Source of the DNA: a virus
Lineage: Duplodnaviria; Caudoviricetes
IMG/VR virus record: IMGVR_UViG_3300028591_000070
Location: 224,001-288,000 of that record
Reading direction: 5' to 3' (one strand)
DNA: 64,000 nt
The notes under the pieces: generated by a model
The model's input: the letters and a program-made list of their open reading frames with translations, nothing else
Databases searched by the model: none
Told to the model about the DNA's origin: nothing
Shown: positions 10,615 to 33,400 of the stretch, piece by piece
Layout of the letters: each line of letters begins with the position of its first letter
Position numbering within the stretch: the first letter of the stretch is position 1
Program-made: the position numbers and the translations under genes

Positions 10615-11007
10615 TTAACTTCTAATTCTAAATTCATTACACTCTACTAAACCACTTTTATTAAGCCATTCAGCTACTAAATGCCTATGGCAAAAGTCTC
10701 CAGGTTTCTCATAACATAATAATACAACTTTATTTATATCAAAGTCACCACATAATTTTGAAATGTCGCCTAAAACCTGATCATATGTCAGATGATTTAA
10801 TACTTCATCATTAAAATGTTGGATATAATAGTCATTGTCTCTTTTATGTTCTGTACCATTTTTCCATTCATTAAAGAATGACCACTTAGGAGCGAGTTTT
10901 TTATACCAAAGACCTTTATACCAGTTTGGTATTCCACCACAAATTGCAATAGGTATAAGGCCTAATCTTTCATAATCTTTTAATTTTGCGAAATATCCTG
11001 TGTACAT
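10615..11007 (-). CDS. DUF488-family protein
   Basis: YTGYFA...KLAP.W...LLCYEKPGDFCHRHLVAEWL. Confidence 0.85.
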   Translation of the reverse strand: MYTGYFAKLKDYERLGLIPIAICGGIPNWYKGLWYKKLAPKWSFFNEWKNGTEHKRDNDYYIQHFNDEVLNHLTYDQVLGDISKLCGDFDINKVVLLCYEKPGDFCHRHLVAEWLNKSGLVECNEFRIRS

Positions 11008-12569: not shown

Positions 12570-13625
12570 ATGATGAATTTGAAACAATATTTTTTAGACA
12601 CTTATTCTACTGAGTTTCGTAGAGATAAGCATGAGGACTTCTTTTGGGTTCAAATGCTTATGACAATTGCATGTTCTCTTTTAAATAGTCTTTGGTTATT
12701 AAAAGATGTATTTGTAAAAGGTATCGGTCCTGAAGGAAATTTATATTTTGTTATTTTATGTCGTCTTATTCCTTCTGTATTACTTATCCCATTTATTCTA
12801 TGGTCTTTCTCAAATAAAAAGATTGAGCCTTACTTTGCTAATTTTCTATTATACATTAATCTTTTTGCACAAATTTTTGCTATTCATTTTTCAGGTAAAC
12901 CTACTAGTGGAACTGGCCATACGATTATGAGCTTAGCTATTTTCATGCTAGAGTATGCCTCAGTATCTGGAGTGGCTCAGATTTTAGCTCAGATTTTATA
13001 TCCATTTTTAATGTATATAAGTTCTCAAGCTGTTTTAGGACTTTTTATAACGTCTAATGACCCAGCAGGATTACTATTTTCAAATTGTATTATGTCTATA
13101 GCTAGTTTAATTTCTGCCACAATTTTAAGAATAAATTATTATAATTCATGGATTATAAAACGCAAACTGGTGCTAGCTGCAAAAATGGATTCTATGACAG
13201 GTCTTTGGAATAGAAAAAGAATAAATGATATTACTAGCAAAGATTTATTATTAGAAGACTCAACTATTTTAATGATAGATATCGATAATTTTAAGTCTAT
13301 AAATGATAATAATGGCCATGACTTTGGTGATAAAGCTATTCTAGACACGGTCGACTATTTAAAAAAATCTTTTTCAACTGCAAATATTATTCGATATGGT
13401 GGTGATGAATTTTTAATTATTATTTCAGAAAATATGAAATTATCAAAAGTTAAAATTAGATTAAGTGCCAATCGTTCTAGAGATGACATTACCTATTCAA
13501 TAGGTATTGCTTATGGAAATAAAGATGATAATATCTATGGAATAATAAAACACGCTGATATAGCACTATATAAATCTAAAGAAACTAAAAATTGTATAAC
13601 ATTATTTAATGACATATTAAAATAA
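12570..13625 (+). CDS. membrane-anchored GGDEF diguanylate cyclase
   Basis: About 6 TM helices, then DSMTGLWNR, DIDNFKSINDNNGHDFGD, RYGGDEF, ADIALYKSK. Confidence 0.93.
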   Translation: MMNLKQYFLDTYSTEFRRDKHEDFFWVQMLMTIACSLLNSLWLLKDVFVKGIGPEGNLYFVILCRLIPSVLLIPFILWSFSNKKIEPYFANFLLYINLFAQIFAIHFSGKPTSGTGHTIMSLAIFMLEYASVSGVAQILAQILYPFLMYISSQAVLGLFITSNDPAGLLFSNCIMSIASLISATILRINYYNSWIIKRKLVLAAKMDSMTGLWNRKRINDITSKDLLLEDSTILMIDIDNFKSINDNNGHDFGDKAILDTVDYLKKSFSTANIIRYGGDEFLIIISENMKLSKVKIRLSANRSRDDITYSIGIAYGNKDDNIYGIIKHADIALYKSKETKNCITLFNDILK

Positions 13626-13626
13626 A

Positions 13627-13658
13627 TAAAAGCCTCTCAAATGAGAGGCTTATTTTTT
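13627..13658. terminator. bidirectional intrinsic terminator
   Basis: AAGCCTCTC-AAAT-GAGAGGCTT between convergent genes. Confidence 0.8.
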
Positions 13659-14709
13659 AAGCTGGAAAGTCGCCTTTATTGATTACACGTACAATATTTC
13701 CATACTGGAAAGTTCCAGGAACAGGCACCATGGCATTAGTATTATAAACAAGTTCATCAATCAATTCACCATTTTTTACAAGTCGTGTGGATCCATCTGG
13801 ATGTGGCATAGGTGACTCAATTTCAAGACGTTTGAAATCTTCAATAAAAGTATTTGGATTCCAATGGATAATGTCTTTATTTACCATTGTATGGTAACCA
13901 CCCGAAGTAGCAACTATTACATAATTTCCTTTTCCAAGTTTTTCATTGCAGTAGTCCATCCAGCCTTCAAGAAGTGGAAATCCATCTACATAATAATCTC
14001 GGATATATTTACCCCAATCATTTAGGTCGAGATCAAAGTCTACCCAATATTTTGTACCAACATTGTCGAACTGAAGGCGCTTCATCTTAGAGAGTGATTT
14101 ACACATCTTATAAAGAGACTGGCTTGTACCACTCTCATCAGATCTCATTTTTAGTGAACCGATTCTCTTTGTAATAGCATCCAAACTTTCGGCAGTAGGA
14201 TTATTCAAATAGCCAGACAAATCAGGACCAAGAATATTTGCAATAAAGTTTGCGCGATCAATATCTTTAATAGCTGAGTTTATCAATTCCTGCTCATGAA
14301 TATTGATATATCCTTTCAAGTCTTCAATAACTTTAAGCTCATCACAAGGATTAATATGGAAATAAACAACCATTGCTTTAGGTGGAAGTGTATGTCCTCC
14401 ATATGCAAAAGCTTCTTTATGGCACTCATAAGAACGAATACCTTTCTTCCAGCGTTCATATGTTGTTTCACCATCTTTAGTTGCAAAAACTACCTGTGGG
14501 TCAAGCATTTCTACACGACCTAAAGGTGATTTTAAATCTTCCTCATTAAGCTTTTTCTTACGAATTGAGAGACAGAAAGCATAAGCCTCATTTCTCTTTA
14601 GAGGATGCACACAATGGTCATAAAACCACTTAAGTTCATCTTCGTCAGCAATAAGCTTATAATGCTCGAGAGACTCCAACATTTTGATATTTTCTTCTAC
14701 AGTACTCAT
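13657..14709 (-). CDS. putative archaeo-eukaryotic primase (AEP)-fold protein
   Basis: WVDFDLD (DxD), ATSGGYH (SxxxH-like) and PVPGT motifs. Confidence 0.45.
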   Translation of the reverse strand: MSTVEENIKMLESLEHYKLIADEDELKWFYDHCVHPLKRNEAYAFCLSIRKKKLNEEDLKSPLGRVEMLDPQVVFATKDGETTYERWKKGIRSYECHKEAFAYGGHTLPPKAMVVYFHINPCDELKVIEDLKGYINIHEQELINSAIKDIDRANFIANILGPDLSGYLNNPTAESLDAITKRIGSLKMRSDESGTSQSLYKMCKSLSKMKRLQFDNVGTKYWVDFDLDLNDWGKYIRDYYVDGFPLLEGWMDYCNEKLGKGNYVIVATSGGYHTMVNKDIIHWNPNTFIEDFKRLEIESPMPHPDGSTRLVKNGELIDELVYNTNAMVPVPGTFQYGNIVRVINKGDFPA

Positions 14710-14715
14710 AATTAG

Positions 14716-14744
14716 ATTATACTTTTTATTTTAAAGATTTTCAA
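14716..14744 (-). promoter_or_regulatory. sigma70-type promoter, leaderless start
   Basis: TTGAAA-N17-TATAAT, 6 nt before ATG 14709. Confidence 0.7.
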
Positions 14745-15567
14745 CTAGTTTTTTAGCCTCATCATCATAGATATCTGGACTTATTTGGACATAATCAATA
14801 CCATGAATTTTAAAGAAAGTTTTTACTTCTTTTATCTCTGAGAAAGCAGGTTTCTTTAAAGTAAAGTTGACAAAAATACTTTGTGATCCAAAGGTATCTC
14901 TTAAATATAGAAGATTATCCATAACCTTTTCCCAACTAGCTCCAATTCTAATGGCCTCAAAACTTTCTTTAGTTATACCATCAATAGATGGGGAAAAATT
15001 ATAAATCACTCCTGTTGTGTCACTTATCGCTTTAAGTTCATCTATTCTAGAATGAGAAAGTAAAGTTAAATTAGATTGAAAGTCTACAATTCTTGTATCT
15101 TTTGGAGATAAACCTTTTAAAAATTGAATTACTTTATAATAATAAAAGAAGACTTCGCCAGAGCTTATTAAATGAATTTTTTCTAATGAATGTCCTTTAA
15201 TTTTTTCTAATGTTTCAAATTGAAGGTCTCTAGTGTCTGGCTCATCTTTATGTTCTGTAAAAAAACAATGATAACAATGTAAATTACAAGCTTTAGAAAA
15301 AGATACAGTAACTACTTCTATTTTAGGACTTAAAGTACATGGGCAAGTGCACCATCCTTCATAAGCAGGCTTTTTAGAAATATTTACTTTTGATGATTCT
15401 TCTTCTGCAAATGAAATAAGATCCTTTATCTTTAAAAAATCTTTAATTGGCATATCTACCACAAAAGGATAGATATAACAACACCTAGAAAGACAAACTG
15501 TTTTTCCTTTTGGCTCATAAGTAATTTCTAGTCTAGAAGGCATTACACATTTATTAAAAACTTCCAT
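14731..15567 (-). CDS. radical SAM protein 1 (N-terminal twitch-like module; subfamily A)
   Basis: C..P...RCC...CTCPC; CNLHCYHCF; SSGEVFFYY; SIDG...FEAIR. Confidence 0.9.
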   Translation of the reverse strand: MEVFNKCVMPSRLEITYEPKGKTVCLSRCCYIYPFVVDMPIKDFLKIKDLISFAEEESSKVNISKKPAYEGWCTCPCTLSPKIEVVTVSFSKACNLHCYHCFFTEHKDEPDTRDLQFETLEKIKGHSLEKIHLISSGEVFFYYYKVIQFLKGLSPKDTRIVDFQSNLTLLSHSRIDELKAISDTTGVIYNFSPSIDGITKESFEAIRIGASWEKVMDNLLYLRDTFGSQSIFVNFTLKKPAFSEIKEVKTFFKIHGIDYVQISPDIYDDEAKKLVENL

Positions 15568-16403
15568 TACATTTCCTCAAACACTTTCTTTGCTTCTTCG
15601 TCAAAGCAGTCGTATGTCACAAAAGTATAGCCTATATTAAAATTTCTTGAAAAAAATTCTTTAACATTTTTATCTTTAAAATTTGGTTTTTTAATAACAT
15701 AGTTAATGCATATGTTCTCTGACCCAAATTCTTTAACCATTAACTCAAGGTTGTTCATAACTTTTTCAAAGTTTGCGCCTATTCTAGTTGCTTCAAACGT
15801 TTCTTTTGTAATTCCATCAATTGAAACAGTGATGTTTTTATATGGAATTCCTGTATTATCACTTACTTGTTTTAATTCTTTAATTCTAGTCTCATTTAAT
15901 GTAGAAAGACTTGATACAAAACTTACTTGTTTAGTATCTTTACATGGGTCTAAAGACTTTAAATAATTAAGTGTTTGATTATAATAAAAAAATGGTTCAC
16001 CTCTATCATTTAATCTTATTTCAGTAAGACAATTTCCTTTAATATTTTCTAAAGTTTTAAAATATAATTGTTTTGTTTCAGGGCTATCTTTATGCATTCC
16101 ATCCCAAAAGCAATGATAGCAACGTAAATTACAAGCCTTTGATAAGCCAACCGTTACTTTTTCAATTTTCTTAGGGAAATGACAAACTAAGCAACTGTCT
16201 TTGTGTTCATCATTAAAAACAGGTGGGACATTACAATGCTGATAAGCATATTCAATTATATTATTAATTTTTAAAAAATCCTCAATTGATAAAATTGAAA
16301 ATGGCTCAAGATAACAACATCTGCGTAAAAAAACTTTATCTTCTTGATTTAATATAATTGATAGTTCACCTAAAGGATTCCAACATTTTCTATTAATTTC
16401 CAT
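15567..16403 (-). CDS. radical SAM protein 2 (subfamily A)
   Basis: CWNP...RRCC...CLVC; CNLRCYHCF; DRGEPFFYY; SIDG. Confidence 0.9.
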   Translation of the reverse strand: MEINRKCWNPLGELSIILNQEDKVFLRRCCYLEPFSILSIEDFLKINNIIEYAYQHCNVPPVFNDEHKDSCLVCHFPKKIEKVTVGLSKACNLRCYHCFWDGMHKDSPETKQLYFKTLENIKGNCLTEIRLNDRGEPFFYYNQTLNYLKSLDPCKDTKQVSFVSSLSTLNETRIKELKQVSDNTGIPYKNITVSIDGITKETFEATRIGANFEKVMNNLELMVKEFGSENICINYVIKKPNFKDKNVKEFFSRNFNIGYTFVTYDCFDEEAKKVFEEM

Positions 16404-16405
16404 AA

Positions 16406-17254
16406 TTATCCCCTATAGTTATAAAATGCTTTTTTGCAATTCTCATCTAACATATCATAGTAAATATTAACTTCTACACCTTTTGAATTAAAAAAGGGTT
16501 TTATATTTGGCAAATCTTTAATAGAAGCTTCTCGAATAGTACAACAAACGCAAATATCTTTTTTATCAAAAATGGAAATTAAGTTATCAAAGTTTTCCAT
16601 AACTTGTTCCCAATTTGCGCCACATCTTGTTCCTTCAAAACTCTCTTTAGTTATGCCGTCTATAGAAGCAACAAACATATATTTAACACCAGTTTGTTCA
16701 CTTATTTTCTTTAATTCTAAAATACGATTTTTATTTAATAAAGTCATATTAGTAAAAAACCGCATAGTTTCAGTATCATTAAGAGTAAGACTCCTTAAAA
16801 ATTTAACAACCTCATTATAATAAAAGAATGGCTCTCCTTGGTCTGTGAGTTGTAGTTGATAAAGCTGATGACCTTTAACACTGTATAATGTTTTAAAAAA
16901 TAAATCTTTAATCTGTTTAGTATCTGTGTGATGTCCATCAAAAAAACAATCATGACAATGAATATTACAAGCATGAGATAAAGATACCACTACTTGTTTA
17001 ATTTTATCGGGTGGAAAATAACAAGTAGTACATCTATCCATGGTCATTTGTTTTCGTAATTCTTCAGGAGAAGGATATTTAAACGTCTTTGTATAATCTA
17101 TTATATCATCTATTTTTGAAAATTCTTCAAAGCTCAGGGTTTTAAAAGGAGCTAAATGACAACATCTTTTTAGAGCAACTTCTGTATCATTTTCTCTTGT
17201 AATCCAAAGCGCACCATAAGGAATGGTACAATTTCCATGATTTGCGAATTCCAT
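16406..17254 (-). CDS. radical SAM protein 3 (subfamily A)
   Basis: CTIPY...KRCC...CTTC; CNIHCHDCF; DQGEPFFYY; start moved to ATG 17254. Confidence 0.9.
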   Translation of the reverse strand: MEFANHGNCTIPYGALWITRENDTEVALKRCCHLAPFKTLSFEEFSKIDDIIDYTKTFKYPSPEELRKQMTMDRCTTCYFPPDKIKQVVVSLSHACNIHCHDCFFDGHHTDTKQIKDLFFKTLYSVKGHQLYQLQLTDQGEPFFYYNEVVKFLRSLTLNDTETMRFFTNMTLLNKNRILELKKISEQTGVKYMFVASIDGITKESFEGTRCGANWEQVMENFDNLISIFDKKDICVCCTIREASIKDLPNIKPFFNSKGVEVNIYYDMLDENCKKAFYNYRG

Positions 17255-17282
17255 AACAATAAAATTAGTGACTAATTTCAAT
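17255..17282. promoter_or_regulatory. back-to-back ACTAAT motifs (bidirectional late-like promoter)
   Basis: ATTAGT-G-ACTAAT at 17264-17276; 9 nt to ATG 17254 (-), 6 nt to ATG 17283 (+). Confidence 0.7.
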
Positions 17283-18116
17283 ATGAATAAATGCCATAGA
17301 AAAATATATTCTATACAAGTAGATTTTACTATAAATAAAGTTGAACTAACAAAATGCTGCTATTTACATGGAAATAAAATTTCAATTGAAGAATTTAAGG
17401 CATTAGATAATATTATTATTCCACCAAATGAATTACCTTCTAATCCTTACCATATTGAAAATTGTTTAATGAATTGCGACTTTGATGATAATAAATATCA
17501 AACAATAGATATTTGTTGCAGTAGTTTATGTAATGCAAAATGTTATCATTGTTGTGCTGCAGATCATTCTCATCCCGACCCTAGAGAAAGAGATTTACTT
17601 TATAATTTTATTTTACCAAAAGTAAAAGGTTTTGGATATGGAACTCTTCAACTAGATGGGAAAGGAGAAGTATTTTTAAATTATAAAGAAATAACAGCAT
17701 TTTTAAAAACTCTTTCTGCTGAAAAAGATTTTAAGACTGTAAGATTTTTAACAAATGGTTCAACACTCACTAAAGAACGATTATTAGAATTAAAATCTAT
17801 TAGTGATATGACAGGTATAAACTATATTTTTGCAATTTCAGTAGATGGCATTAGTAAAAAAACCTTTGAAGCAGTGAGATGTGGACTTTCTTTTGAAAAT
17901 GTAATGGCTAATTTGCAGAACACTGTAGAGATTTTTGGAAATAATAATGTAGATATTACTTTTACGATTAAAGAACCTAACAAAGAAGACACTCCTTATG
18001 TGAAAGATTTTTTAGTAAATAATTATAATATTTTACCTGAAAGAATCGCTATGCAAAGTGATTTTTTAGATAAAAATATGAATCAATATTTAACAAATTA
18101 TTTTAAAGATCGTTAA
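17283..18116 (+). CDS. radical SAM protein 4 (subfamily B)
   Basis: C...KCC...CLMNC; CNAKCYHCCA; DGKGEVF; SVDG; start moved to ATG 17283. Confidence 0.9.
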   Translation: MNKCHRKIYSIQVDFTINKVELTKCCYLHGNKISIEEFKALDNIIIPPNELPSNPYHIENCLMNCDFDDNKYQTIDICCSSLCNAKCYHCCAADHSHPDPRERDLLYNFILPKVKGFGYGTLQLDGKGEVFLNYKEITAFLKTLSAEKDFKTVRFLTNGSTLTKERLLELKSISDMTGINYIFAISVDGISKKTFEAVRCGLSFENVMANLQNTVEIFGNNNVDITFTIKEPNKEDTPYVKDFLVNNYNILPERIAMQSDFLDKNMNQYLTNYFKDR

Positions 18117-18958
18117 AACTTTTCAATAAATAATTTTTTACAATCTTCATCAAAAAAGTCATAAGTAATAACTACCCATACACCTAAATTTCTGAAAAAC
18201 GTTTCAATCTCTTCTCTTGAGGCAGCCATATTAGGTTTTTTAATAGTGTAATTTACTAAAACATCATCAAAATTATTTAATAAATATTTTAGATTTGTGA
18301 TAGTCTTATCAAACTTTCCATAAATACGAGTAGCTTCATAAGCTTCTTTTGTGATACCATCTATAGAGGCCTCAAACTTATAGTGAATACCAGTTTTTTC
18401 ACTTATATCTTTAAGTTCTTTAATTCTTTCTTCCGATAATAAATTTAAATTTGTTAAAAACTTTATTGTTTTTGCATCTTCAGTAGTTAAAGTTTTTAAG
18501 TAATCTCTTATCTTATAATAATAAAAGAAGGGCTCACCTCTGTCAGTAAACTCAATAATATCTAAGTCATGACCTTTAATTTTTTCTAAAGTTTCAAAAT
18601 ATAATTCTTTTAATTCTTTTGTGTCTCTATGATTTTCATAGAAACAATGATAACAATTTAGATTACAAGCATAAGATAGCCCAACAGTTACTCTTTTTAT
18701 TTCATTTTTTGGAAAATAACAAGGATGGCAAAAATTATCTTCTTTAGAAGAAAAATTAGTATTTGCATATTTACTATAGTCTAAATATTCAAAAGTTTTA
18801 GAAAATTCAATAGGATCTTTTATTTTAAGAAATTCTTCAATAGAACAACTATAAAAAGGCTTACCACGACAGCAGCGTTTTAGGTCAATTTTATTTTCAA
18901 AAAAATTAATATTTAATTCACCACCTTCATAAGCAGTACAATTTACTAGTTTACTCAT
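18113..18958 (-). CDS. radical SAM protein 5 (subfamily A)
   Basis: C...KRCC...CHPC; CNLNCYHCF; DRGEPFFYY. Confidence 0.9.
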   Translation of the reverse strand: MSKLVNCTAYEGGELNINFFENKIDLKRCCRGKPFYSCSIEEFLKIKDPIEFSKTFEYLDYSKYANTNFSSKEDNFCHPCYFPKNEIKRVTVGLSYACNLNCYHCFYENHRDTKELKELYFETLEKIKGHDLDIIEFTDRGEPFFYYYKIRDYLKTLTTEDAKTIKFLTNLNLLSEERIKELKDISEKTGIHYKFEASIDGITKEAYEATRIYGKFDKTITNLKYLLNNFDDVLVNYTIKKPNMAASREEIETFFRNLGVWVVITYDFFDEDCKKLFIEKF

Positions 18959-18961
18959 TAC

Positions 18962-19813
18962 TTAATCCCATCTTTTATTTAAAGGTACATATTTAGAACA
19001 ATACTCTTCATCAAAATAGTCAGAGCTCCATAAAACATTTGATCCTAGATTTTTAAAAAATTCTTCTACTTGAGGCACATCTTCTATGTTAGGCCGTTTA
19101 ACTGTAAATGTGACCAAAGTATTTCCAAAAAGATTATTTAATTTTTTTAAAACTAAAATTACTTTGTTAAAATCAGCACCTGGTCGACATTTCGAAAAAG
19201 TATCTTCTTTAATTCCATCTATTGAAAGATTAAACTGATAATTTACACCAGTTTTTTTAGATATTTCATATAATTGATTTATTCTATCTTCGTTTAAAAG
19301 AGTACCATTAGTCATAAAAAATATATTTTTAATATTATTACTTGTAATGCTATTTAAATATGTTATTAAATCATTATAATAAATGAAAATCTCGCCGGAG
19401 CCATCTAAGAATAAAGTACCAATATTTGAGTTTTTTAATAAGTTTAACATTTTAAATAAAAATTCTTTTGCTTTTAATGGATTATTTTGCTCTTTATTTA
19501 AAGGACTCCATCCATCAATAATTCCACCAAAACCTGCACAACAGTGATAACATCTTAAATTACAAGCCTTAATGACATTAAGGGTAACATTTTTTATCTG
19601 ATTTGAAAATGCACAATTCTTTTGGCATTGATTTTCATGACCTTCTTTAAACTCGGAAGAAATTGCAAGTTCACCTAAGTCATTTAAACTTTTATTTAAA
19701 AATTCTTCTAAAGAAATAGTTTTTTGTATAAGTTGACAACATCTACCTATATCTATAGTTTGATTTATATTATCATATGAAACTAATAAATCTGAAGTTT
19801 TACAACAAAACAT
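18962..19813 (-). CDS. radical SAM protein 6 (subfamily B)
   Basis: CC...GRCC...CQKNC; CNLRCYHCCAG; DGSGEIF; TNGTLL. Confidence 0.9.
   Translation of the reverse strand: MFCCKTSDLLVSYDNINQTIDIGRCCQLIQKTISLEEFLNKSLNDLGELAISSEFKEGHENQCQKNCAFSNQIKNVTLNVIKACNLRCYHCCAGFGGIIDGWSPLNKEQNNPLKAKEFLFKMLNLLKNSNIGTLFLDGSGEIFIYYNDLITYLNSITSNNIKNIFFMTNGTLLNEDRINQLYEISKKTGVNYQFNLSIDGIKEDTFSKCRPGADFNKVILVLKKLNNLFGNTLVTFTVKRPNIEDVPQVEEFFKNLGSNVLWSSDYFDEEYCSKYVPLNKRWD
18983..19018. repeat. 36-bp exact direct repeat shared by rSAM6 and rSAM8 (second copy 20692-20727)
   Basis: aggtacatatttagaacaatactcttcatcaaaata occurs at both positions. Confidence 0.85.
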
Positions 19814-19841
19814 ATATAGTAAATTTAGTACTAATTTTAAT
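19814..19841. promoter_or_regulatory. back-to-back ACTAA(T/A) motifs
   Basis: TTTAGT-ACTAAT at 19824-19835; 10 nt to ATG 19813 (-), 6 nt to ATG 19842 (+). Confidence 0.7.
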
Positions 19842-20669
19842 ATGCAAAAATGTCGAAGAACTAATGAATTATATATAACTTTAAATGACCAAAATAATAT
19901 ATATTTACAAAGATGTTGTGCGGCTTCAGGAGAAGTTATTAGTTTAGATGATTTTTTTAATTATTCTATAGATGAACTCAGCGAAATTCCAATAAATGGA
20001 CATACCCTAAATGAAAGAAAAAGTGGTTGTAGTAATAAATGCAATTTTTCAAAAAACATTAAAACAATATTTTTTAATGTGATTAATGTTTGTAATATTA
20101 AATGTTATCATTGCTGCGCCGGATGTGACCATAAAGGTTTAGGTAATATATCATTTAGAAAAAAGCAATTTTTTAAAATAATAAATACTATAAAAAATGC
20201 GCATCTTGATTCTATTGGATTCGATGGCACTGGAGAAATATTTCTCTTTTATAAAGACTTAGTGTCTTTATTAAAAACACTAACTCCAAATGATACTAAA
20301 GATATACGATTTTTAACAAATGGTACTCTTTTAAATGAAGACCGACTAAAAGAACTCTATCAAATAAGTAAAGACACAGGAATAAATTATAGGTTTGGTT
20401 TATCGGTAGATGGTTTAACAAAAGAAACTTATGAGAAAATAAGAGTGGGTGCAAATTTTGAACATACAATAGATATTATTGATTCTATAAAGAATATTTT
20501 TAATAATCCACCTGAAATTATTTTTACTATTAAAAAATATAATATCCAAGAAGTACCTTTTGCAAAAGATTTTTTTATACAACTAGGTTGCTCTTATATT
20601 GAATTTTTATATGACATATTTGATTCAGAATGTGGTAAATATATGCCAGAAGATTGTAGAATTGGTTAA
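19842..20669 (+). CDS. radical SAM protein 7 (subfamily B)
   Basis: C...QRCC...CSNKC; CNIKCYHCCAG; DGTGEIF. Confidence 0.9.
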   Translation: MQKCRRTNELYITLNDQNNIYLQRCCAASGEVISLDDFFNYSIDELSEIPINGHTLNERKSGCSNKCNFSKNIKTIFFNVINVCNIKCYHCCAGCDHKGLGNISFRKKQFFKIINTIKNAHLDSIGFDGTGEIFLFYKDLVSLLKTLTPNDTKDIRFLTNGTLLNEDRLKELYQISKDTGINYRFGLSVDGLTKETYEKIRVGANFEHTIDIIDSIKNIFNNPPEIIFTIKKYNIQEVPFAKDFFIQLGCSYIEFLYDIFDSECGKYMPEDCRIG

Positions 20670-20670
20670 T

Positions 20671-21516
20671 TTATGAATATCTTTTATCTACAGGTACATA
20701 TTTAGAACAATACTCTTCATCAAAATAATCTGAATTCCATGTGATACTAACATCATAAGGTTCAAAAAACTTTTCAACAAAAGGTACATCTTCTACATTA
20801 GGTCGTTTAACTGTAAATATTACAGTAGTATATGGGAATAATTTTGATATAAACTTTAAGTTATCTAATACCCTATTAAAATCAGCACCTGGTCTACAAG
20901 CATTAAAAGTTTTTTCGCTTATACCATCTACCGATATTACGAATCTATACTGAACATTTGTCGTTTTACTTATTTTTAATAAATTAACAATTTTATTTTT
21001 ATTTAAAAGAGTAGCATTTGTTTGAAAATAAATTATTTTTGTATTTTCACCTGAAAAAGATTTTAAAGCTTCAATGAGGTCATCATAATAAATAAATATT
21101 TCGCCAGAGCCATCCATACTAATAGAAGAAAGTTTTTTTGTTCTTAAGTAAGAAAGTGCATCAAAAAGAAAATTTTTTCTATCTTGTAATTCTTCTTTAC
21201 AAATATTTTTAGCATTCCATTCACTAATTGAACCACTCTGTCCTGCACAGCAATGAAGACAAGATAAATTACATTTAGCAATAGCTGATATAACTACGTC
21301 TGTTATAGGCTCTACAAAGCCACAATTAAATTGACACTGATGCATATGATCTGGCCTAAGCTCAATAGGAGTATTTGAAGCTAAATCTTCTAAACTATTT
21401 AAAAATAAATCTGCTCTAGAAAATTGGTGTTCTTTTAAATGACAACATCTACTTATTAAAATAAATCCAGGTTTGTCATATGATATATTTATAATCGAGG
21501 ACCTTGAACATGACAT
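20671..21516 (-). CDS. radical SAM protein 8 (subfamily B)
   Basis: C...SRCC...CQFNC; CNLSCLHCCAG; DGSGEIF. Confidence 0.9.
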   Translation of the reverse strand: MSCSRSSIINISYDKPGFILISRCCHLKEHQFSRADLFLNSLEDLASNTPIELRPDHMHQCQFNCGFVEPITDVVISAIAKCNLSCLHCCAGQSGSISEWNAKNICKEELQDRKNFLFDALSYLRTKKLSSISMDGSGEIFIYYDDLIEALKSFSGENTKIIYFQTNATLLNKNKIVNLLKISKTTNVQYRFVISVDGISEKTFNACRPGADFNRVLDNLKFISKLFPYTTVIFTVKRPNVEDVPFVEKFFEPYDVSITWNSDYFDEEYCSKYVPVDKRYS

Positions 21517-21532
21517 ACTAATTTAATTAGTT
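21517..21532. promoter_or_regulatory. 16-bp intergenic gap with opposed ACTAAT motifs
   Basis: ACTAAT-TTA-ATTAGT near-palindrome between divergent ATGs 21516 and 21533. Confidence 0.7.
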
Positions 21533-22372
21533 ATGTGTCATCCATGGGAAAATTCTTTAGTAATTAATCAATTCGAAGGCTTAGATGGCTTTGAGGTTAG
21601 TAGATGCTGTATATTGAAAAGTAAAAAAATATCAAAAGAACAATTTTTTGAGTCATCCTTAAATGATGTTGGCAGGTTTGCTAAACCTGAGTCTTTTATC
21701 CAAGATGACTTATCACTATGTGCTCATGATTGTAATTTTTTAGAAGATATAAGTAAAGTTCATTTAAATATTATTCATAATTGTAATTTAAGATGTTATC
21801 ATTGTTGTGCAGGCTTTGATAAAAATGACCCAAGATTATGTTTTGGACTTAATAAATCTTTAGAATATCATCAACAGAAAAAAGAGTCATTTTTTCAAGT
21901 TTTAAATTATTTAAAAAACTATCCATTAAAAATAATATCAATGGATGGATCTGGAGAAATTTTTTTATATTATAAAGACCTAATTCATTACTTATTGTCA
22001 GTAAGATCTCACAATGTAGAAGAAATTTGTTTTTTAACAAATGGTACATTATTAACTGAAGAAAAAATTATTACTTTAAGTAAAATAAGTGAAAAAACAA
22101 AAATCAAATATAGTTTCGACCTCTCAATAGATGGTGTAACTAAAGAAAGTTTTGAATCAATTAGACATGGTGCAAAGTTTGAACAAATAATAGAAACAGC
22201 ATATCTTTTAAAAAATTATTTTGATACACAGATTAATTTTACTATTAAAAAACCAAATATCAGTGATATTGATAAGGTAGCAGATTTTTTTAAAGATTTT
22301 AGACTTTTCTGGTCATATGATTATTATGATCCTGAATGTGCGAAATATTTAAAAAATAAATGGGGAGAATAA
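21533..22372 (+). CDS. radical SAM protein 9 (subfamily B)
   Basis: CHPW...SRCC...CAHDC; CNLRCYHCCAG; DGSGEIF. Confidence 0.9.
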   Translation: MCHPWENSLVINQFEGLDGFEVSRCCILKSKKISKEQFFESSLNDVGRFAKPESFIQDDLSLCAHDCNFLEDISKVHLNIIHNCNLRCYHCCAGFDKNDPRLCFGLNKSLEYHQQKKESFFQVLNYLKNYPLKIISMDGSGEIFLYYKDLIHYLLSVRSHNVEEICFLTNGTLLTEEKIITLSKISEKTKIKYSFDLSIDGVTKESFESIRHGAKFEQIIETAYLLKNYFDTQINFTIKKPNISDIDKVADFFKDFRLFWSYDYYDPECAKYLKNKWGE

Positions 22373-22380
22373 ATCTCCCC
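22351..22380 (-). terminator. intrinsic terminator of the topo II operon
   Basis: GGGGAGA-ATAAA-TCTCCCC with a T-rich tail on the minus strand. Confidence 0.65.
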
Positions 22381-22385
22381 TCATA

Positions 22386-24260
22386 TTAAGCCATATCAAT
22401 ATGAAACTCTCTTCCTCTTAAATAATTTTTACGAGGAGTTGAGTCATCACCATACCATTCTTCAATAGTTGTTTTAGCTCTATCATCCATTTCAAAAGGT
22501 TTAAGAAGTTTATCCATTCCACCAACTTTTTCGATAATTTGTTTTAAGTCTTCTTTTACCCAAGAACCCAATCCTTTCAAATAAAAATATTCAAGATTTT
22601 TCTTAAGTTCTGAATTTTTAGGAAATGCAAAATAATACTCTTCTACGCTATTACCTTTTTTACCAATCAAAAGAGGTGTTTCCAATCTACAAACTCTTCC
22701 TTGTTCAAGCATTTTAGGAGCAACTATACTAAAGAATGTGAGAATAAGACCAGCAATAGCACAACCATCTGGGTCGGCGTCAGTAAGAATTACAACTTTA
22801 TCATAAGTCATATCTTCTGTATTACCATTGGCATCTAAACCTAAAATATCACACAACTCCTTGATTTCGCGATTCTTCATAAACTCAACTGGCTTTTCAC
22901 CGAAGATATTCATCAACTTACCACGAAGCATATAATATCCAATACCTTTTCTACCTAAAATTGGAGAAATACCTGAAAAGGCAGAGAAACCCTCAGTTAT
23001 CATAAGATAATTTTTTCCAGTTTTTCCAATAGGTCCAAAATATTTATCAGACTCAACTTCCTTCTTACCTTTATTTAACTTTGCCAACTCTTTCTGTTCA
23101 GCTAATTCTTCTTTAAGTCTAAATAAATCAGTAATGTTATTAACAATTTCTTTTTCTCTAAGAATTTTAGCTGTAAAGCCATCCATATCAAGTTGATTAT
23201 CTCTAATAAAGTCGCCTACTTCTCCCCAAGAGTTTGTAAGTTTCTTTTTAGTCTGACTATCAAATGCACAGTTCAAAAATCCTTTTAAGAAAATTACAAT
23301 ACCGATGCGGTTACGAATATCAGCCGGTTTAATTGCTTTATATTTCTTTGAAACTTTATCACGAATATCACTTACAATTTTGTTTGTGATATAGTCAGCA
23401 TGGGTTCCACCTTCCTTCAATGAAATACCATTTACATAAGTAAGTGTATAAGGCTCTTCAGAAGGATAAACACAGATATAAGCATTTGGCTCATTCATAA
23501 CAATTGCTGGCTGTGGAAATAATGAACTTAAATCTTTGGCTGCTTTAATATTTACTTTTTCACCATTGAAAGTAAAAGTACAATCTGGATAAAACCATGA
23601 CAAAAACTTCAATCTAGTTTTTACAAGCAAAATAATATCTTCATCAAATCCTTTTACTGAAAATTTTTCAAAATCAGGTGAGAAAGTAATTTTTGTTCCA
23701 GTCTTGTTATTAGCTGCAAGTTCTTTTACATTGATTTTAGAAAGATTATTTTCACAAGAGATTTTCATCTTTCCTTGGCCATCACAAGTAATACATTCAA
23801 ATGTTTTTGAGAAAATAGATGCGGCCTTAATTCCAATACCATTTGTACCAATTGTCTCACGATTTTCATCATTGAAGTTTGAACCTGACATTGGAACTGT
23901 TACAGCATTTACACACATCCAATCTCCATTATCCATTTTCTTAACTGGAATACCACGGCCATTATCTTCAATAGAGAAAGTATTTTTGTCCATTGTGATA
24001 TTTATTTTTGTTGAATACTTCCAACCTGTTTTAATACCTTCGTCAACCGAATTATCAATTGCTTCATTTACAATCTTGTGAAGACCTTCTACAATATTTA
24101 CAGTTTTTAATTCAATTCCGCCTTCTTCATTCAAAGTCCACTCCATAGTATCAGAAGGTTTCATACCGCCTACATACATCTGTGGTCTCGCCAAAATATG
24201 TTCTACTGGAGAAAGTGATTTAATTGATCTATCATCTACTTGTTTCTTTTTTGCTGCCAT
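22386..24260 (-). CDS. type IIA topoisomerase ATPase/TOPRIM subunit (T4 gp39+gp60-like, fused)
   Basis: EHILARPQMYVG, EAIDNSVDE, DNGRGIP, GTNGIG, ITEG.SA, LRGK, DADPDG, YLKGLG. Confidence 0.95.
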   Translation of the reverse strand: MAAKKKQVDDRSIKSLSPVEHILARPQMYVGGMKPSDTMEWTLNEEGGIELKTVNIVEGLHKIVNEAIDNSVDEGIKTGWKYSTKINITMDKNTFSIEDNGRGIPVKKMDNGDWMCVNAVTVPMSGSNFNDENRETIGTNGIGIKAASIFSKTFECITCDGQGKMKISCENNLSKINVKELAANNKTGTKITFSPDFEKFSVKGFDEDIILLVKTRLKFLSWFYPDCTFTFNGEKVNIKAAKDLSSLFPQPAIVMNEPNAYICVYPSEEPYTLTYVNGISLKEGGTHADYITNKIVSDIRDKVSKKYKAIKPADIRNRIGIVIFLKGFLNCAFDSQTKKKLTNSWGEVGDFIRDNQLDMDGFTAKILREKEIVNNITDLFRLKEELAEQKELAKLNKGKKEVESDKYFGPIGKTGKNYLMITEGFSAFSGISPILGRKGIGYYMLRGKLMNIFGEKPVEFMKNREIKELCDILGLDANGNTEDMTYDKVVILTDADPDGCAIAGLILTFFSIVAPKMLEQGRVCRLETPLLIGKKGNSVEEYYFAFPKNSELKKNLEYFYLKGLGSWVKEDLKQIIEKVGGMDKLLKPFEMDDRAKTTIEEWYGDDSTPRKNYLRGREFHIDMA

Positions 24261-30100: not shown

Positions 30101-30346
30101 TTCTGGAGTTTTAGGTTCATTAGCAAATATTTCATTAACAATTGACTGGCCTGTTGCTTGTAAAGTTTCTTTTAATACTTGTCTAAAAGACTCTGGCATA
30201 TCTTTAATAGCTTGCATAAGCTCAGATTGCTCATCTTTTTTAAAGAGTTTTTTAGTATCATCTCCTTTAGGTGTTAATCCAATACCTTCAAGGGATTTTG
30301 TATTGAGTGTTACTTTATCTGCATTAAGGGTAATTCCATCAGGCAT
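27110..30346 (-). CDS. tape-measure-like tail protein
   Basis: 1078 aa, helical, long Ala/Gly/hydrophobic central region; ACTAAT motif at 30353-30358. Confidence 0.65.
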   Translation of the reverse strand: MPDGITLNADKVTLNTKSLEGIGLTPKGDDTKKLFKKDEQSELMQAIKDMPESFRQVLKETLQATGQSIVNEIFANEPKTPEEPKEHFQKPTDKINDVKKLAAKYGTPALYLGAKIDDIIKILNKPVKEITASKNNPISAAGVIVLGSNVENSKKYIKDFQELTNFVSNQKPLDIGVFKDTQKRLDELTESMDKTTHTKVNTKNSEKFTKQMGSITANFGQVVKQVISLNALTHFINFKKANAKLDDMDKYLERLSGMGDNIGNFATNLALAASCINDSMKAIIKSSLISKLAISSVKNIKSFFTKGIQPLIDTLEDMKLSKIKSLAKSMESIKDIAVNTLKTCKTFAIITPFAILGKFGAMAAKFFVKELAIFLDFVSDKFDLKKIQKSTRAIKAIVLLVTLTSVSMIITSLITPIAVKALVGAAALGLFAIGMTFALNLMGKMTDKIAQGLLAAVLTTVFAGLAFVALKALSSITPKMVGVAMIAVLGFVGVMAVTALLGAAAMYVMAPLALGVAAAILTTTFALTAFLALKTLAMINPTDIQHAVTVMAGGDEGPGLIGLFTATMPLALVGPVALLAMATSMPAALMLAAFAVGSKVAVSALSKIDKDQIKLSAKNITLMALPFAATAVTAPAAIIAMASLPPIMAAITMLAMVALPFKAISEMLGNEPLFTETNPALAKTGILGFVNAMTLTISLLGLTAALGPIAMVGATLISAVLITLTPALFIFSKVAKFFGKRSDPNLVDAMYGDNILKPFQSKYGLIPFLAGAVIAAKTLVGGTIHFLLGTISAVLMSLFFSTLKKSLDAMEQLTELSKNGVDTEAVIKYLDTMELIAEKARSPGLLASVHEAAASWVSDKMGTTVADLINKMSDSVGPMRNLSDQLKGINLDGISIFLDALNKIQSMKASPNTKAIKNAIAGVNELTSQIDTIDGNKFNANIESIMPGIERLQSLPEGDGLNKKAKEIKTAITTLFNIKMNKNADDMINKVDRLTDALERFSKIDSSSIAKTLGIEGSLNFRETSSSAMGAENKKNTPTTNVNVDNSNLEAMLERILNAIESLKEGKTWTDQEASTLR

Positions 30347-30401
30347 AATTTAATTAGTAAAATCATGACTGTTAATATTTTTTGTATAGGAGAAAATATT
30401 A

Positions 30402-31595
30402 ATGACCGAGAATGGTATTGAAATGAAATCAGATTGGTTTATCACAGATGCTCCAAAACAGTTATCTGATGTTAAATCTCAAGACACAATTATTAAGTAT
30501 TACACAAAAAAATTTGCTTCAGGTTCAATGGATAAAAATACAATGTTCCTTGGACAGTTTGGTTCTGGTAAAACAGTTATGGCCAAAATTATCGCAAAGT
30601 CATTGGTATGTAAAGACCTTGATGCTGGTGGAAATCCTTGTGATAAGTGTGCAGCTTGTCAGGCAATCAATAATGAAACTTATAACCGTGATTGTCTCTA
30701 TATTGATGCTGAAAAAATGAGTGCTCAGGATGTTCGTGATGAAGTTGAAAAGTTTACAGCGACAAGAGCTATTCGTGACCGTAATAAGGTAATTATTTGT
30801 GATGAAGCTCAGGCACTTTCAAAAGAAGCAGTTGAAGCCTTCCTTACAGTAACTCAGAATCCAAAACCTGGTTTTTATTTTATTTTTACAGCAATGTCAA
30901 AACTTCAGGGACCAAAGGCCGGAGCTCTTCAGTCACGTTGTAAAGTTTGGAAAATGAAGACACCTCAGGTTGATGATACTTATATGTATTTGGCATCAAT
31001 TGCTCAGAAGAAAAACCTTATTGCTGACACTTCAGTTCCAAAAGAATTCTGGACAGATGGCTTGAAATTTATCGCACAGAATTCAGAGTATTCTTTCCGT
31101 AAAGGTATTCAAATGCTTGAACAGTGTTATGAAGGAAGAATCTTTACTCAGAAAGAAATGGAAGAGACTTTTGGTCTTGTCTCATATGATGATGCTGTTG
31201 CAGCACTTATCCAATTTGGAAATAAGGAAATCACTCGTACAACTTGGAATATTGTAAACGGTGAAGATTATATCGACAAGTTTAATCTTTTGATTAAGAT
31301 TATTGGTGATGCTCAGGCAGTAAAAACATTTGGTACTGAATTTATTGAAGAAGGTGACAAATGGAAGTGGGATCAAGCCGTTCAGCTTTCTAAGACAAAA
31401 TACTTTGATGAAATGCGTGATGTATTTATGGAATTAGGAAAACAAGCTTGGTTGAAAAATGGTACTTGGAGAAGTTCTCTTGCATTATATCTTGAGTCTG
31501 GTACAAAAGCAGGTGAAGCTCCAAAACCTGAGCATTTGCAGGAAACAGTTCCACCTACAACAGGAAGACGTAGAAGGGTAGCAGTAGCAGAATAA
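30402..31595 (+). CDS. dnaX: clamp-loader ATPase, DNA Pol III gamma/tau-like
   Basis: GQFGSGKT, C...PCDKCAAC zinc module, DEAQ, LQSRC; GTTAATATT at 30371-30379. Confidence 0.85.
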   Translation: MTENGIEMKSDWFITDAPKQLSDVKSQDTIIKYYTKKFASGSMDKNTMFLGQFGSGKTVMAKIIAKSLVCKDLDAGGNPCDKCAACQAINNETYNRDCLYIDAEKMSAQDVRDEVEKFTATRAIRDRNKVIICDEAQALSKEAVEAFLTVTQNPKPGFYFIFTAMSKLQGPKAGALQSRCKVWKMKTPQVDDTYMYLASIAQKKNLIADTSVPKEFWTDGLKFIAQNSEYSFRKGIQMLEQCYEGRIFTQKEMEETFGLVSYDDAVAALIQFGNKEITRTTWNIVNGEDYIDKFNLLIKIIGDAQAVKTFGTEFIEEGDKWKWDQAVQLSKTKYFDEMRDVFMELGKQAWLKNGTWRSSLALYLESGTKAGEAPKPEHLQETVPPTTGRRRRVAVAE

Positions 31596-31852
31596 TGACA
31601 ACTATCGAAATTATTGAAAAAGAAAGATTAGAATTAGCTAAAAATGATGATTGTGATACAAAACAATATATGTCTAATGAATTTTTCTATGAAAAACTTT
31701 ATAATCAAATTCATTGGGATAAAAATCACATGACAACTGAAGGTGAAATTTCAAAACTTGCTCTTAGAGCTATGATAGAAATGGCTTATAGAGAAGGTAA
31801 AATAGATGGTCTAGAAAGAGCATCTGAAATTATAATTCAAAATCAGTCATAA
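31595..31852 (+). CDS. hypothetical protein
   Basis: Coupled ORF. Confidence 0.65.
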   Translation: MTTIEIIEKERLELAKNDDCDTKQYMSNEFFYEKLYNQIHWDKNHMTTEGEISKLALRAMIEMAYREGKIDGLERASEIIIQNQS

Positions 31853-31856
31853 AAAT

Positions 31857-31886
31857 AAAGCTCCTCAAATGAGGAGCTTTTTATTT
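31857..31886. terminator. bidirectional intrinsic terminator
   Basis: AAAGCTCCTC-AAAT-GAGGAGCTTT between convergent genes. Confidence 0.8.
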
Positions 31887-31887
31887 A

Positions 31888-32310
31888 CTACATATTTTTG
31901 ATGTCATCTTCAAGAGACTTAAACTTTTCCATCATTTCTTTCATGCAGTCTTTCCAGCCACGTTTATATGACTCAGTATCGATACCTTCATCTACTGGTT
32001 CTTTGGCTTCATGAGCCGGAGCTTCAGGAACTGGGCCAGAATCTTCGGGTTTTTCGATAGGCTTAACATAAAATGAAAAACTGTCTTCTCTAAATCGAAG
32101 ATTTATTCCAACATCAGCATCTTGTGCTGATACATCTTTGATTACTTTTTCAATTTTTGAAAAATAATCTTTTACTTCCTGAGAAGCATATTCAAACTGA
32201 ACATCTCTGGAATTGTCCAAAAAACAAAATCCAGAGCCTAATTGCTGACCAACAAGCCCTTCTTTTTTGAGAGCTTCTTCAATGTCATTTGAAACTTTTA
32301 ATAAATCCAT
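31888..32310 (-). CDS. hypothetical protein
   Basis: 140-aa ORF with GGAG SD. Confidence 0.7.
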   Translation of the reverse strand: MDLLKVSNDIEEALKKEGLVGQQLGSGFCFLDNSRDVQFEYASQEVKDYFSKIEKVIKDVSAQDADVGINLRFREDSFSFYVKPIEKPEDSGPVPEAPAHEAKEPVDEGIDTESYKRGWKDCMKEMMEKFKSLEDDIKNM

Positions 32311-32314
32311 ATTA

Positions 32315-32572
32315 TTAACTCCTATTGGTATCTTTTAAAAAAGATTTATACTCAGTGTCTATTTTATCTGTCGCTGTATTTAAGTCATCTTCACACTTAA
32401 AAGAAACAGTAAACTCAATTTCATTTGAGCCTTTTACTGGATAGCCATGAATATCATGGTCTCTTGTTTTTTCACGAACTCTGATAGAAGGAAAAGTAAT
32501 AACGTCTGCATATTCGTCCAAAATATCCAAAATTTTGTGATTAAATTCTATAATTCTTTTATCAATTGTCAT
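32315..32572 (-). CDS. hypothetical protein
   Basis: Preceded by ATGAAA-17-TATAAT. Confidence 0.65.
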   Translation of the reverse strand: MTIDKRIIEFNHKILDILDEYADVITFPSIRVREKTRDHDIHGYPVKGSNEIEFTVSFKCEDDLNTATDKIDTEYKSFLKDTNRS

Positions 32573-32610
32573 TTTATCTAGATTATACCAAAAGGTTAAT
32601 ATTTTTTCAT

Positions 32611-33393: not shown

Positions 33394-33400
33394 TTTATTT

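Follow-up and report, generated by a model that had tools for sequence, protein, structure and literature searches.

Nine consecutive genes of a giant phage of the gut or rumen (class Caudoviricetes) encode paralogous radical S-adenosylmethionine (SAM) enzymes, which we confidently regard as members of a new phage radical SAM family for which there is no curated model. To our mind the chances are evenly balanced that these enzymes are radical tailoring enzymes of a glycoconjugate made by the phage, the nature of the substrate being the part that we infer; with less confidence, we suggest that the virion may be the target of the tailoring. The genes (W1 to W9; Table 1) fill positions 14731 to 22372 of the window, by which we mean the whole stretch of 64,000 nucleotides (nt) analyzed here, corresponding to positions 224001 to 288000 of the 385,934-bp virus record IMGVR_UViG_3300028591_000070, rated 100% complete. 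All nine are intact, and neighboring genes overlap or lie at most 28 nt apart. A previous interpretation of the same DNA, made from its letters and open reading frames (ORFs) and hereinafter called the sequence-only reading, had proposed glycans among the possible targets, and this guess gained independent support from relatives of the nine genes that are fused to family 2 glycosyltransferase (GT2) domains or are found in sugar-pathway cassettes.

A new family of phage radical SAM enzymes

The nine copies share 28 to 48% identity in pairwise comparisons (mean, 36%), and all of them are 275 to 283 amino acids (aa) long once the starts of W3 and W4 are revised. The starts listed for these two genes are probably over-extended, the alignment with the other copies and a motif found upstream of the genes favoring ATG 17254 for W3 and ATG 17283 for W4. 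Invariant in the nine copies (W1 numbering) are C7, C29-C30, C73, and C77, followed by the cluster motif C-N-x2-C-x2-C and then by G-E, S-x-D-G, R, and a C-terminal D-x2-D; the cluster motif is likewise invariant in all 15 copies of the family encoded by this genome and in 119 representatives of the family. The coordinates given in the sequence-only reading for nine consecutive ORFs with short gaps or overlaps were borne out, as was its list of motifs (N-terminal cysteines, CxxxCxxC, GE loop, and C-terminal D-x2-D), all of which are present and invariant in 9/9 copies. However, that description had taken over the extended starts of W3 and W4 and had overlooked the use of both strands: from W1 to W9 the strand order is - - - + - - + - +, and the array is not co-directional.

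Distinctive residues and the length of the loop that follows the cluster motif divide the copies into subgroup I (W1, W2, W3, and W5), with 35 to 36 residues between the cluster motif and G-E, and subgroup II (W4, W6, W7, W8, and W9), with 37 to 49 residues. This loop is the region of greatest difference among the paralogues, the spacing from the cluster motif to G-E being 35 to 49 residues over the whole set. The radical SAM profile PF04055 matches 9/9 copies, seven of which pass its gathering score of 29.5 bits with scores from 30.9 to 47.8; W2 and W3 remain below it, yet they keep all the motifs and align over their full length with the other copies.

Neither the nine copies nor ten diverse relatives attained any NCBIfam cut-off; the placement of all copies in a known single-function family, which the sequence-only reading had named as a refuting outcome, was not found. 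The PHROG matches of the nine copies were generic. Three curated families were considered and rejected: the N-terminal-twitch family NF033640 (27 to 45 bits for the nine copies and at most 42 bits for ten diverse members, versus a cut-off of 170), viperin NF038283 (best score, 37.8 bits versus 180), and the tetraether synthase Tes NF045702 (36.5 bits versus 450); the curated cut-off of MoaA was missed by a wide margin as well. NF033640 is among the better NCBIfam matches for several copies and, by its description, shares with them an N-terminal auxiliary Cys domain and the lack of an assigned function. However, its model is 398 positions long, whereas the present copies have about 280 aa, and the alignment is restricted to profile positions ~100 to 320, that is, to the core, the first 100 positions being unmatched. 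The nine proteins are therefore not members of the N-terminal-twitch family.

An exhaustive profile search returned at least 157 representatives (50% identity clusters) at an E value of ≤1e-30. Most of them are 270 to 320 aa long and align from profile position ~5, and therefore the N-terminal module is included in the family. The same Cys pattern occurs in the 119 representatives examined (50% identity clustering) and, as judged from their alignment, is shared far beyond chance. No description of this radical SAM family was found in the literature.

An N-terminal module with five conserved cysteines

Each copy consists of an N-terminal module of ~80 residues with five conserved Cys, followed by a partial-barrel radical SAM core. 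Among the 119 representatives (W7 numbering), C4 and C25 are conserved in 99%, C26 in 88%, and both C63 and C67 in 100%, as is the catalytic triad; the C63-C67 spacing ranges from 2 to about 12 residues across the family. Such conservation suggests that the module probably ligates a single auxiliary Fe-S cluster or forms a different metal site. At the other end of the protein, the copies stop soon after the last core element and have no conserved C-terminal Cys; the SPASM profile PF13186 was absent from all nine copies at an E value of ≤0.1, while it was scored, as a positive control, in P0169 (L010), a conventional relative.

In the AlphaFold2 (AF2) model of W7, the module comprises a hairpin between C4 and C25, a third strand, short helices, and a low-confidence loop containing C63 and C67, after which the standard barrel follows. 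The order of these elements (Cys, hairpin, CC, helices, and C-xn-C) is similar to that in the first half of a SPASM domain, and the pattern C-x2-PW…hairpin…SCC…CC-x2-C is found in P0169 inside a genuine C-terminal PF13186 domain. Furthermore, the hidden Markov model (HMM) of the family gave secondary matches between its N-terminal region and the C-terminal Cys domains found in P0169 and in gp084 and gp087 of Campylobacter phage CP220. An HMM of the module alone scored real SPASM proteins at 1 to 3 bits and shuffled sequences at up to 5.8 bits, and hhalign comparison of the module with SPASM/twitch gave a probability under 1%; the secondary matches are unusable as evidence. The module folded alone (predicted local distance difference test [pLDDT], 80) had a best Z score of 3.3, and none of ≥5, against 48,161 Protein Data Bank (PDB) representatives. 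The sequence-only reading had called the module twitch/SPASM-like: the likeness stands for the order of the Cys and the hairpin, whereas homology was not demonstrated by HMM, hhalign, or fold. We consider the module to be an uncharacterized Cys5 domain that very probably binds a metal or a cluster.

The only solved structure for which sequence and structure alignments are co-linear into the N-terminal region is GDGT-MAS/Tes (7tol and 7tom), the match in that region being weak (E value, 0.24). Profile positions 17 to 247 align with residues 41 to 271 of the chain; the CC pair of the family corresponds to C33 of a rubredoxin-type site and C63/C67 correspond to C73/C80 of the N-terminal [4Fe-4S] site; by structure, the VIA Z score is 13.7, with 213 residues aligned over positions 1 to 275 of the model. 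The two N-terminal sites of GDGT-MAS require 6 Cys and 2 His, and the enzyme, which acts on a lipid substrate, has in addition a C-terminal cluster domain (PMC9433317). Different from it, the present family has 5 Cys, no conserved His, and no C-terminal domain.

As for the core, the model of W7 matched many radical SAM structures with a Foldseek probability of 1.00 and with VIA Z scores of 12 to 14 over ~190 residues. The top Foldseek match in the PDB was the sugar-nucleoside decarboxylase BlsE (7vob; E value, 7e-7), and BtrN (4m7t) was detected by profile (E value, 2.7e-5). BlsE and BtrN, carbohydrate-modifying twitch/SPASM radical SAM enzymes with which DesII is grouped by function, have the core fold in common with the present family. 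However, in these enzymes the auxiliary cluster, if any, is C-terminal, and their genes are single ones in bacterial antibiotic pathways, whereas here the Cys module is N-terminal and the genes are phage-borne and arrayed. Viperin resembles the present copies in being compact and without a C-terminal cluster domain, but unlike them it has no N-terminal Cys module.

Glycosyltransferases, sugar cassettes, and virion modules in the context of the family

The genome encodes 15 copies of the family, namely, the nine of the array, five in a second array, and a solitary one. The second array is directly downstream of a Gp23-type capsid gene, and two of its copies carry C-terminal extensions, one of which (in copy B5) is a GT2 domain. 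The six copies outside the nine-gene array had gone unmentioned in the sequence-only reading. The gene directly after the second array (L005:20-1531) codes for a radical SAM protein of 503 aa that belongs to another family. Two proteins encoded about 4.5 kb downstream of the same array (L005:3726-5495 and L005:5496-7064; genome positions 30226 to 33564) contain 65 and 68 Cys, arranged in CxxxC-type repeats, and about 11 kb downstream is glf (L005:9676-10770).

Fusion to glycosyltransferases recurs across the family. Among 20 long proteins within the best 150 matches, eight consist of a complete family module and a GT2 domain; GT2 was found in 8/9 long fusions tested, in both domain orders and with at least three GT2 lineages, and the eight fusions are independent of one another. 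The fused GT2 domains had no match when compared by sequence with solved structures, and a word-based search for longer fused forms retrieved one protein only. Two or three of the 20 long proteins are tandem double copies of the family module. P0010 (565 aa) and P0009 (553 aa) are single-polypeptide fusions of two copies, with P0010 joining a B1-like to a B2-like half in the order of the first two genes of the second array; for the idea of a B1-B2 heterodimer, which derives from P0010, the complex prediction score was 0.00 and gave no verdict.

Contexts were inspected at about a dozen loci, out of at least 157 clusters. Two arbitrarily picked loci, L025 and L026 (the latter on a 240-kb contig), share a cassette in which 5 to 6 family copies, located on both strands, accompany a GT56-family transferase (Glyco_transf_56), TupA-like and PylC-like ATP-grasp proteins, and a DegT/DnrJ/EryC1 sugar aminotransferase; the ATP-grasp pair recurs in L009. 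The gene set, as predicted from these domains, is that of nucleoside diphosphate (NDP)-amino-sugar biosynthesis and decoration. Desosamine formation by DesI/DesII follows the logic of coupling a DegT-type aminotransferase to a radical SAM enzyme, a pairing that is also found in the L026 cassette.

All the inspected contexts that contain recognizable marker genes are viral, and most of them are in virion modules. In particular, family copies follow the Gp23-type capsid gene directly in this genome and in L003, close the tail or baseplate modules of L006 and L007, and are located beside terminase, gp15, and gp25 (baseplate) in L008 and beside a T4-type portal gene in L012. In L007, an apparently temperate siphophage (integrase, L007:20159-21271), the copy is a 1,092-aa GT2-radical SAM fusion (L007:10001-13279) that closes the tail module distally, and genes for lysogenic conversion or tail decoration often occupy this place.

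Outside these contexts, a tblastn search of three family members against 50,697 deposited phage records gave none at E values of ≤1e-5 to 1e-8, and the family was not found in 401 sampled cellular genomes of one phylum at an E value of ≤1e-25; a metagenome-assembled genome of Bacteroidales had radical SAM matches at the level of the core only, and pattern-based genome scans for cellular relatives were barely sensitive. These results bear on the idea that the enzymes boost host metabolism by supplying oxygen-independent steps to the infected anaerobic host, a proposal made earlier for such modules in CP220 and CPt10, two phages of Campylobacter (PMC2853527), and in keeping with an anaerobic habitat. 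Given that the family was not found, at family-level stringency, in the 401 cellular genomes, that no curated metabolic equivalog was matched, and that 15 diverged copies together with glycosyltransferase fusions are ill suited to the replacement of a host pathway, we hold this idea to be very improbable.

A proposed role in radical tailoring of sugars

If the enzymes tailor a glycoconjugate, the core cluster would reductively cleave SAM to generate the 5'-deoxyadenosyl radical, which would take a hydrogen from a sugar carbon, with each paralogue acting on a different position or on a different sugar. The substrate may be an NDP-sugar or a glycan already present on a virion component, and the N-terminal cluster, if present, could accept or donate the electron needed to complete the reaction. 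The outcome would be an epimerization, a deamination or dehydration, an oxidation, or the formation of a C-C bond, and the products would be installed by glycosyltransferases, which some relatives carry in fused form. Specificity may be set by the variable loop that follows the cluster motif, and varied decoration would arise as related phages gain, lose, and reshuffle copies. It is possible to hypothesize, in a more general and decidedly tentative form, that large phages of anaerobes combine interchangeable islands of radical SAM paralogues, whose N-terminal Fe-S module would be unprecedented, with glycosyltransferases (fused or neighboring), sugar aminotransferases, and ATP-grasp ligases to build variable, oxygen-independent sugar decorations on virions (or DNA).

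Several observations weigh against the tailoring of a glycoconjugate. No glycosyltransferase or sugar-nucleotide gene was found in or beside the nine-gene array; the sugar toolkit of the whole genome is sparse, being composed of glf and two GT2 domains, and no match to DegT, NDP-sugar epimerase, TupA-like, GT56, or PF01370 was obtained in the genome. The link to sugars is therefore one at the level of the family and not of the locus. Moreover, L025 and L026 have no viral hallmark gene in the stretch inspected. Among solved structures, the closest by sequence are peptide-modifying enzymes (YydG/EpeE, with an E value of 3e-11, CteB, and SkfB), and the highest Z score belongs to viperin, a nucleotide enzyme (13.8; root mean square deviation, 2.8 Å over 187 residues), even if the top matches differ little. 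Finally, the loop with C63 and C67 is modeled at low confidence (pLDDT, 56 to 72), and binding of an Fe-S cluster by the module is what we infer from its cysteines.

The similarity to peptide-modifying enzymes raises the possibility that the nine copies are protein or peptide maturases, introducing thioether or C-C cross-links, epimerizations, or Cα oxidations into phage proteins, with one target per copy and with the glycosyltransferases acting on the same proteins. YydG/EpeE is a peptide epimerase and CteB a sactisynthase, and anSME is among the top fold matches; the second array is upstream of the two Cys-rich proteins; the ATP-grasp ligases of the cassettes occur in peptide pathways too; and the location of family copies in virion gene modules would fit such targets. 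However, the gaps of at most 28 nt leave no space for a precursor gene, the only other ORFs being antisense ones of 82 to 86 aa inside W2 and W3, so that the array is not a standard cluster for ribosomally synthesized and posttranslationally modified peptides (RiPPs), as the sequence-only reading had maintained. In addition, no RiPP recognition element (RRE) family was matched in the Pfam and NCBIfam searches, although the N-terminal module, which matched no known fold, could conceivably be an unusual recognition domain; the C-terminal SPASM domain that nearly all such maturases have is missing; and the DegT aminotransferase and the GT56 transferase of the cassettes indicate NDP-sugar chemistry. 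On the whole, we consider a role in peptide maturation unlikely, if far from negligible.

The array is an accessory island

We conclude with very high confidence that the nine genes form an accessory island that is dispensable, compositionally distinct, and either lost or exchanged between relatives; its dispensability was not noticed in the sequence-only reading. In a blastn comparison with the sibling genome L027 (389,784 bp), the gap covers window positions 14735 to 22385, i.e., about 7,651 nt unique to this genome, between flanks with 91 to 94.5% nucleotide identity. The siblings (L027, L028, and four similar places) present the gene order topoisomerase (topo) II-A, topo II-B, orf350, GGDEF, and onward, with a spacer of 21 nt between topo II-B and orf350; the divergence of the window from the sibling starts right after the topo II-B stop, where the island has an insulating terminator hairpin of its own, and similarity returns at the 21-nt spacer before orf350. 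A GC content as low as that of the island is found in only 0.8% of the equal-sized windows of the genome, and the other family loci have GC contents of 25.6% and 27.1%.

In the related phage L001/L002, at least 8 copies form a differently composed array at the same site, next to the same topoisomerase genes. The array-bearing L001 lineage is more distant from this genome than the array-less sibling, its topo II-B being 88% identical, versus 96% for the sibling, and the other neighboring genes 34 to 58% identical.

The position of the island among topoisomerase II and exonuclease genes could be taken to indicate a modification of nucleotides or DNA, through which the genome would be protected or host processes poisoned. 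The Z scores of viperin and of MoaA (13.3), which is close to it, point in the same direction, and the Campylobacter phages with many radical SAM genes are listed as carrying modified DNA. Nevertheless, the island is inserted in an otherwise conserved gene string, and therefore its adjacency to DNA-metabolism genes is functionally meaningless; other family members are in virion modules and fused to GT2, and the curated cut-offs of viperin and MoaA were missed widely. We thus judge a function in nucleotide or DNA modification to be improbable.

Of the flanking genes, orf350 is the only non-radical SAM gene in any transcription unit of the array, and a bidirectional terminator at 13630 to 13651 closes the unit that it forms with the array. 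It was examined as a partner or substrate of the radical SAM enzymes and rejected, since it is a core gene that follows topo II-B in the array-less siblings and has no relationship to the gene of 349 aa next to the copies in L026. Farther along the window, a GGDEF diguanylate cyclase domain protein (12570 to 13625, + strand; PF00990, 91 bits) and a small protein of a DUF488-N3a subclade (10615 to 11007, - strand; PF22751, 57.5 bits) are kept in the siblings. In the sibling, L027:20595-20858 encodes a protein of 87 aa to which precomputed Pfam assigns a ribosomal protein S21 domain, the homologous place being near 3.7 to 3.96 kb of the window.

Table 1. Coordinates of the array genes, their junctions, and the flanking features in the window
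Feature	Position	Strand	Remarks
Island as a whole	14731..22385		7,655 bp, absent from closest siblings; GC 26.4% versus 31.7% genome-wide
orf350, flanking core gene	13657..14709	-	Widely conserved; co-transcribed with W3-W2-W1 here; follows topo II-B directly in siblings
W1 radical SAM paralogue	14731..15567	-	278 aa, subgroup I; PF04055 43.9 bits
W2 radical SAM paralogue	15567..16403	-	278 aa, subgroup I; stop shares 1 nt with W1 start; PF04055 24.1 bits, below gathering score, motifs intact; orthologue L2a, dN/dS 0.24
W3 radical SAM paralogue	16406..17254	-	282 aa from probable revised ATG (ORF list: TTG 17281); PF04055 16.4 bits; orthologue L2b, dN/dS 0.11
Divergent W3/W4 junction	17255..17282		Inverted ACTAATTT pair, each a few nt 5' of its ATG
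W4 radical SAM paralogue	17283..18116	+	277 aa from probable revised ATG (ORF list: GTG 17268); orthologue L2c, dN/dS 0.19
W5 radical SAM paralogue	18113..18958	-	281 aa; 3' end convergent with W4, 4-nt overlap; orthologue L2e, dN/dS 0.13
W6 radical SAM paralogue	18962..19813	-	283 aa, subgroup II, long loop past cluster motif; orthologue L2f, dN/dS 0.12
Divergent W6/W7 junction	19814..19841		Same inverted motif pair, ACTAAATT / ACTAATTT
W7 radical SAM paralogue	19842..20669	+	275 aa; copy chosen for AF2 model, pLDDT 89.2; orthologue L2g, dN/dS 0.23
W8 radical SAM paralogue	20671..21516	-	281 aa; without orthologue in related L002 array
Divergent W8/W9 junction	21517..21532		16 nt, same inverted motif pair
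W9 radical SAM paralogue	21533..22372	+	279 aa; without orthologue in related L002 array
Terminator-like hairpin at island edge	22362..22380	-	Just after topo II-B stop, overlaps W9 3' end; absent from sibling junction
Topoisomerase II subunit B gene	22386..24260	-	Conserved flank; 96% aa identity to sibling

The copies are individually maintained

In a maximum-likelihood tree, six window copies pair one-to-one with L002 copies with 98 to 100% support, whereas W8 and W9 have no orthologue there and L002 holds two extra members. The ratio of nonsynonymous to synonymous substitution rates (dN/dS) in the six window/L002 pairs ranges from 0.11 to 0.24, and that of the N-terminal module alone from 0.14 to 0.36; dS, at 0.64 to 1.38, is partly saturated in these pairs. 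The neutral evolution that the sequence-only reading had set out as a check is contradicted by these values, which indicate purifying selection, and its claim that a jumbo phage carries genuine and diversified radical SAM paralogues can be retained with the addition that each copy is kept by selection. Judging from the tree and the substitution rates, the copies are of old origin, each is maintained individually, and gains and losses occur among them. That they are decaying or selfish repeats without an enzymatic role, as the dispensability of the island in siblings and its odd composition could suggest, is hardly credible in view of the intact frames, the retained catalytic motifs, the low dN/dS values, and the one-to-one orthologues in a diverged relative.

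A start-proximal motif at the divergent junctions

Each of the three divergent junctions of the array consists of an inverted ACTAA[AT]TT pair, with 13 to 28 nt between the paired ATGs. ACTAAWTT is depleted in the window (7 observed versus 21 ± 5 expected), and 5/7 occurrences are at the divergent junctions. Within the window the motif was noted at these junctions, at 17262 to 17278, 19822 to 19837, and 21517 to 21532, and also at 33389 to 33396. Genome-wide, 86/179 ACTAA[AT]T sites are located at most 40 nt upstream of an ORF starting with ATG, mostly with exactly 5 nt from the 7-mer to the ATG. Some 50 genes carry ACTAA[AT]T before their ATG, including other family copies, an amidase gene, and giant ORFs of 4,431, 2,362, 2,017, 1,731, and 1,078 aa, while at the start of the capsid gene a site of the AAGGAG type takes its place. 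ACTAA[AT]T could act as a promoter from which near-leaderless transcripts arise, or it could mark the start of translation. Sigma-70-like sites were not enriched, and ten genes with the ACTAATT signal had no informative Pfam domain to indicate the timing of expression.

Convergent 3' ends abut or overlap within the array or at its edge (18113 to 18116, 20669 to 20671, and 22372 to 22386). A terminator search of the array found none between W4 and W5 or between W7 and W8, and therefore transcripts must read antisense into the neighboring copy.

Comparison with the Campylobacter phage modules and significance

Multiple radical SAM genes have a precedent in the Campylobacter group II phages CP220 and CPt10, large T4-like phages of a low-oxygen gut host, which carry 11 to 12 radical SAM genes (Timms et al. 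2010, PMC2853527), a case that the sequence-only reading did not mention. Their five-gene tandem radical SAM module was described as interchangeable and probably non-essential (PMC2853527), and in the literature to 2025 no function is assigned to the radical SAM modules of Campylobacter phages. In CP220 (L033, record positions 70690 to 80717) an amidinotransferase-like gene is interspersed among five radical SAM genes, after which come two nucleotide-diphospho-sugar transferases, and a PAP2 phosphatase belongs to the cluster as well. Like this module, the present array is multi-copy, dispensable or exchangeable in a large phage, and associated with sugar transferases, in our case at the family level. 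However, CP220 gp080 to gp087 have the conventional order, with the cluster motif at residues 7 to 39 and a Cys-rich C terminus, whereas the Cys of the present family are N-terminal. On the HMM of the present family the CP220 proteins score 11 to 40 bits, over the core alone, and they belong to a different protein family; furthermore, the CP220 copies are co-directional, while the present array is on mixed strands. New with respect to CP220 are thus the separate family, the N-terminal module, the higher number of copies, the mixed-strand packing with bidirectional start signals, the behavior as an island, and the link to glycosyltransferases and amino sugars. As a cultured phage, CP220 is a tractable system for asking what the role of such modules is.

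Radical SAM genes are common in large phages and almost wholly uncharacterized, the one documented multi-copy case, that of Campylobacter phages, having been without an assigned function for 15 years. The family described here has so far been found in viral contexts only and is distinguished by its N-terminal Cys5 module, and its copies are under selection and yet are carried as a dispensable, reshuffled island. Our analysis turns an array of radical SAM genes of unknown role into a testable proposal, the anaerobic tailoring of a phage glycoconjugate, for which the sibling phages with and without the island represent a natural experiment. If the proposal is true, radical chemistry would join the short list of routes by which phage particles are decorated, and the family would offer a collection of small, related enzymes whose specificities are probably different. 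Under the more general and tentative hypothesis of variable sugar decorations, the surface chemistry of closely related phages would diverge as copies are gained, lost, and reshuffled, the radical SAM islands offering a radical route to the diversification of phage glycans.

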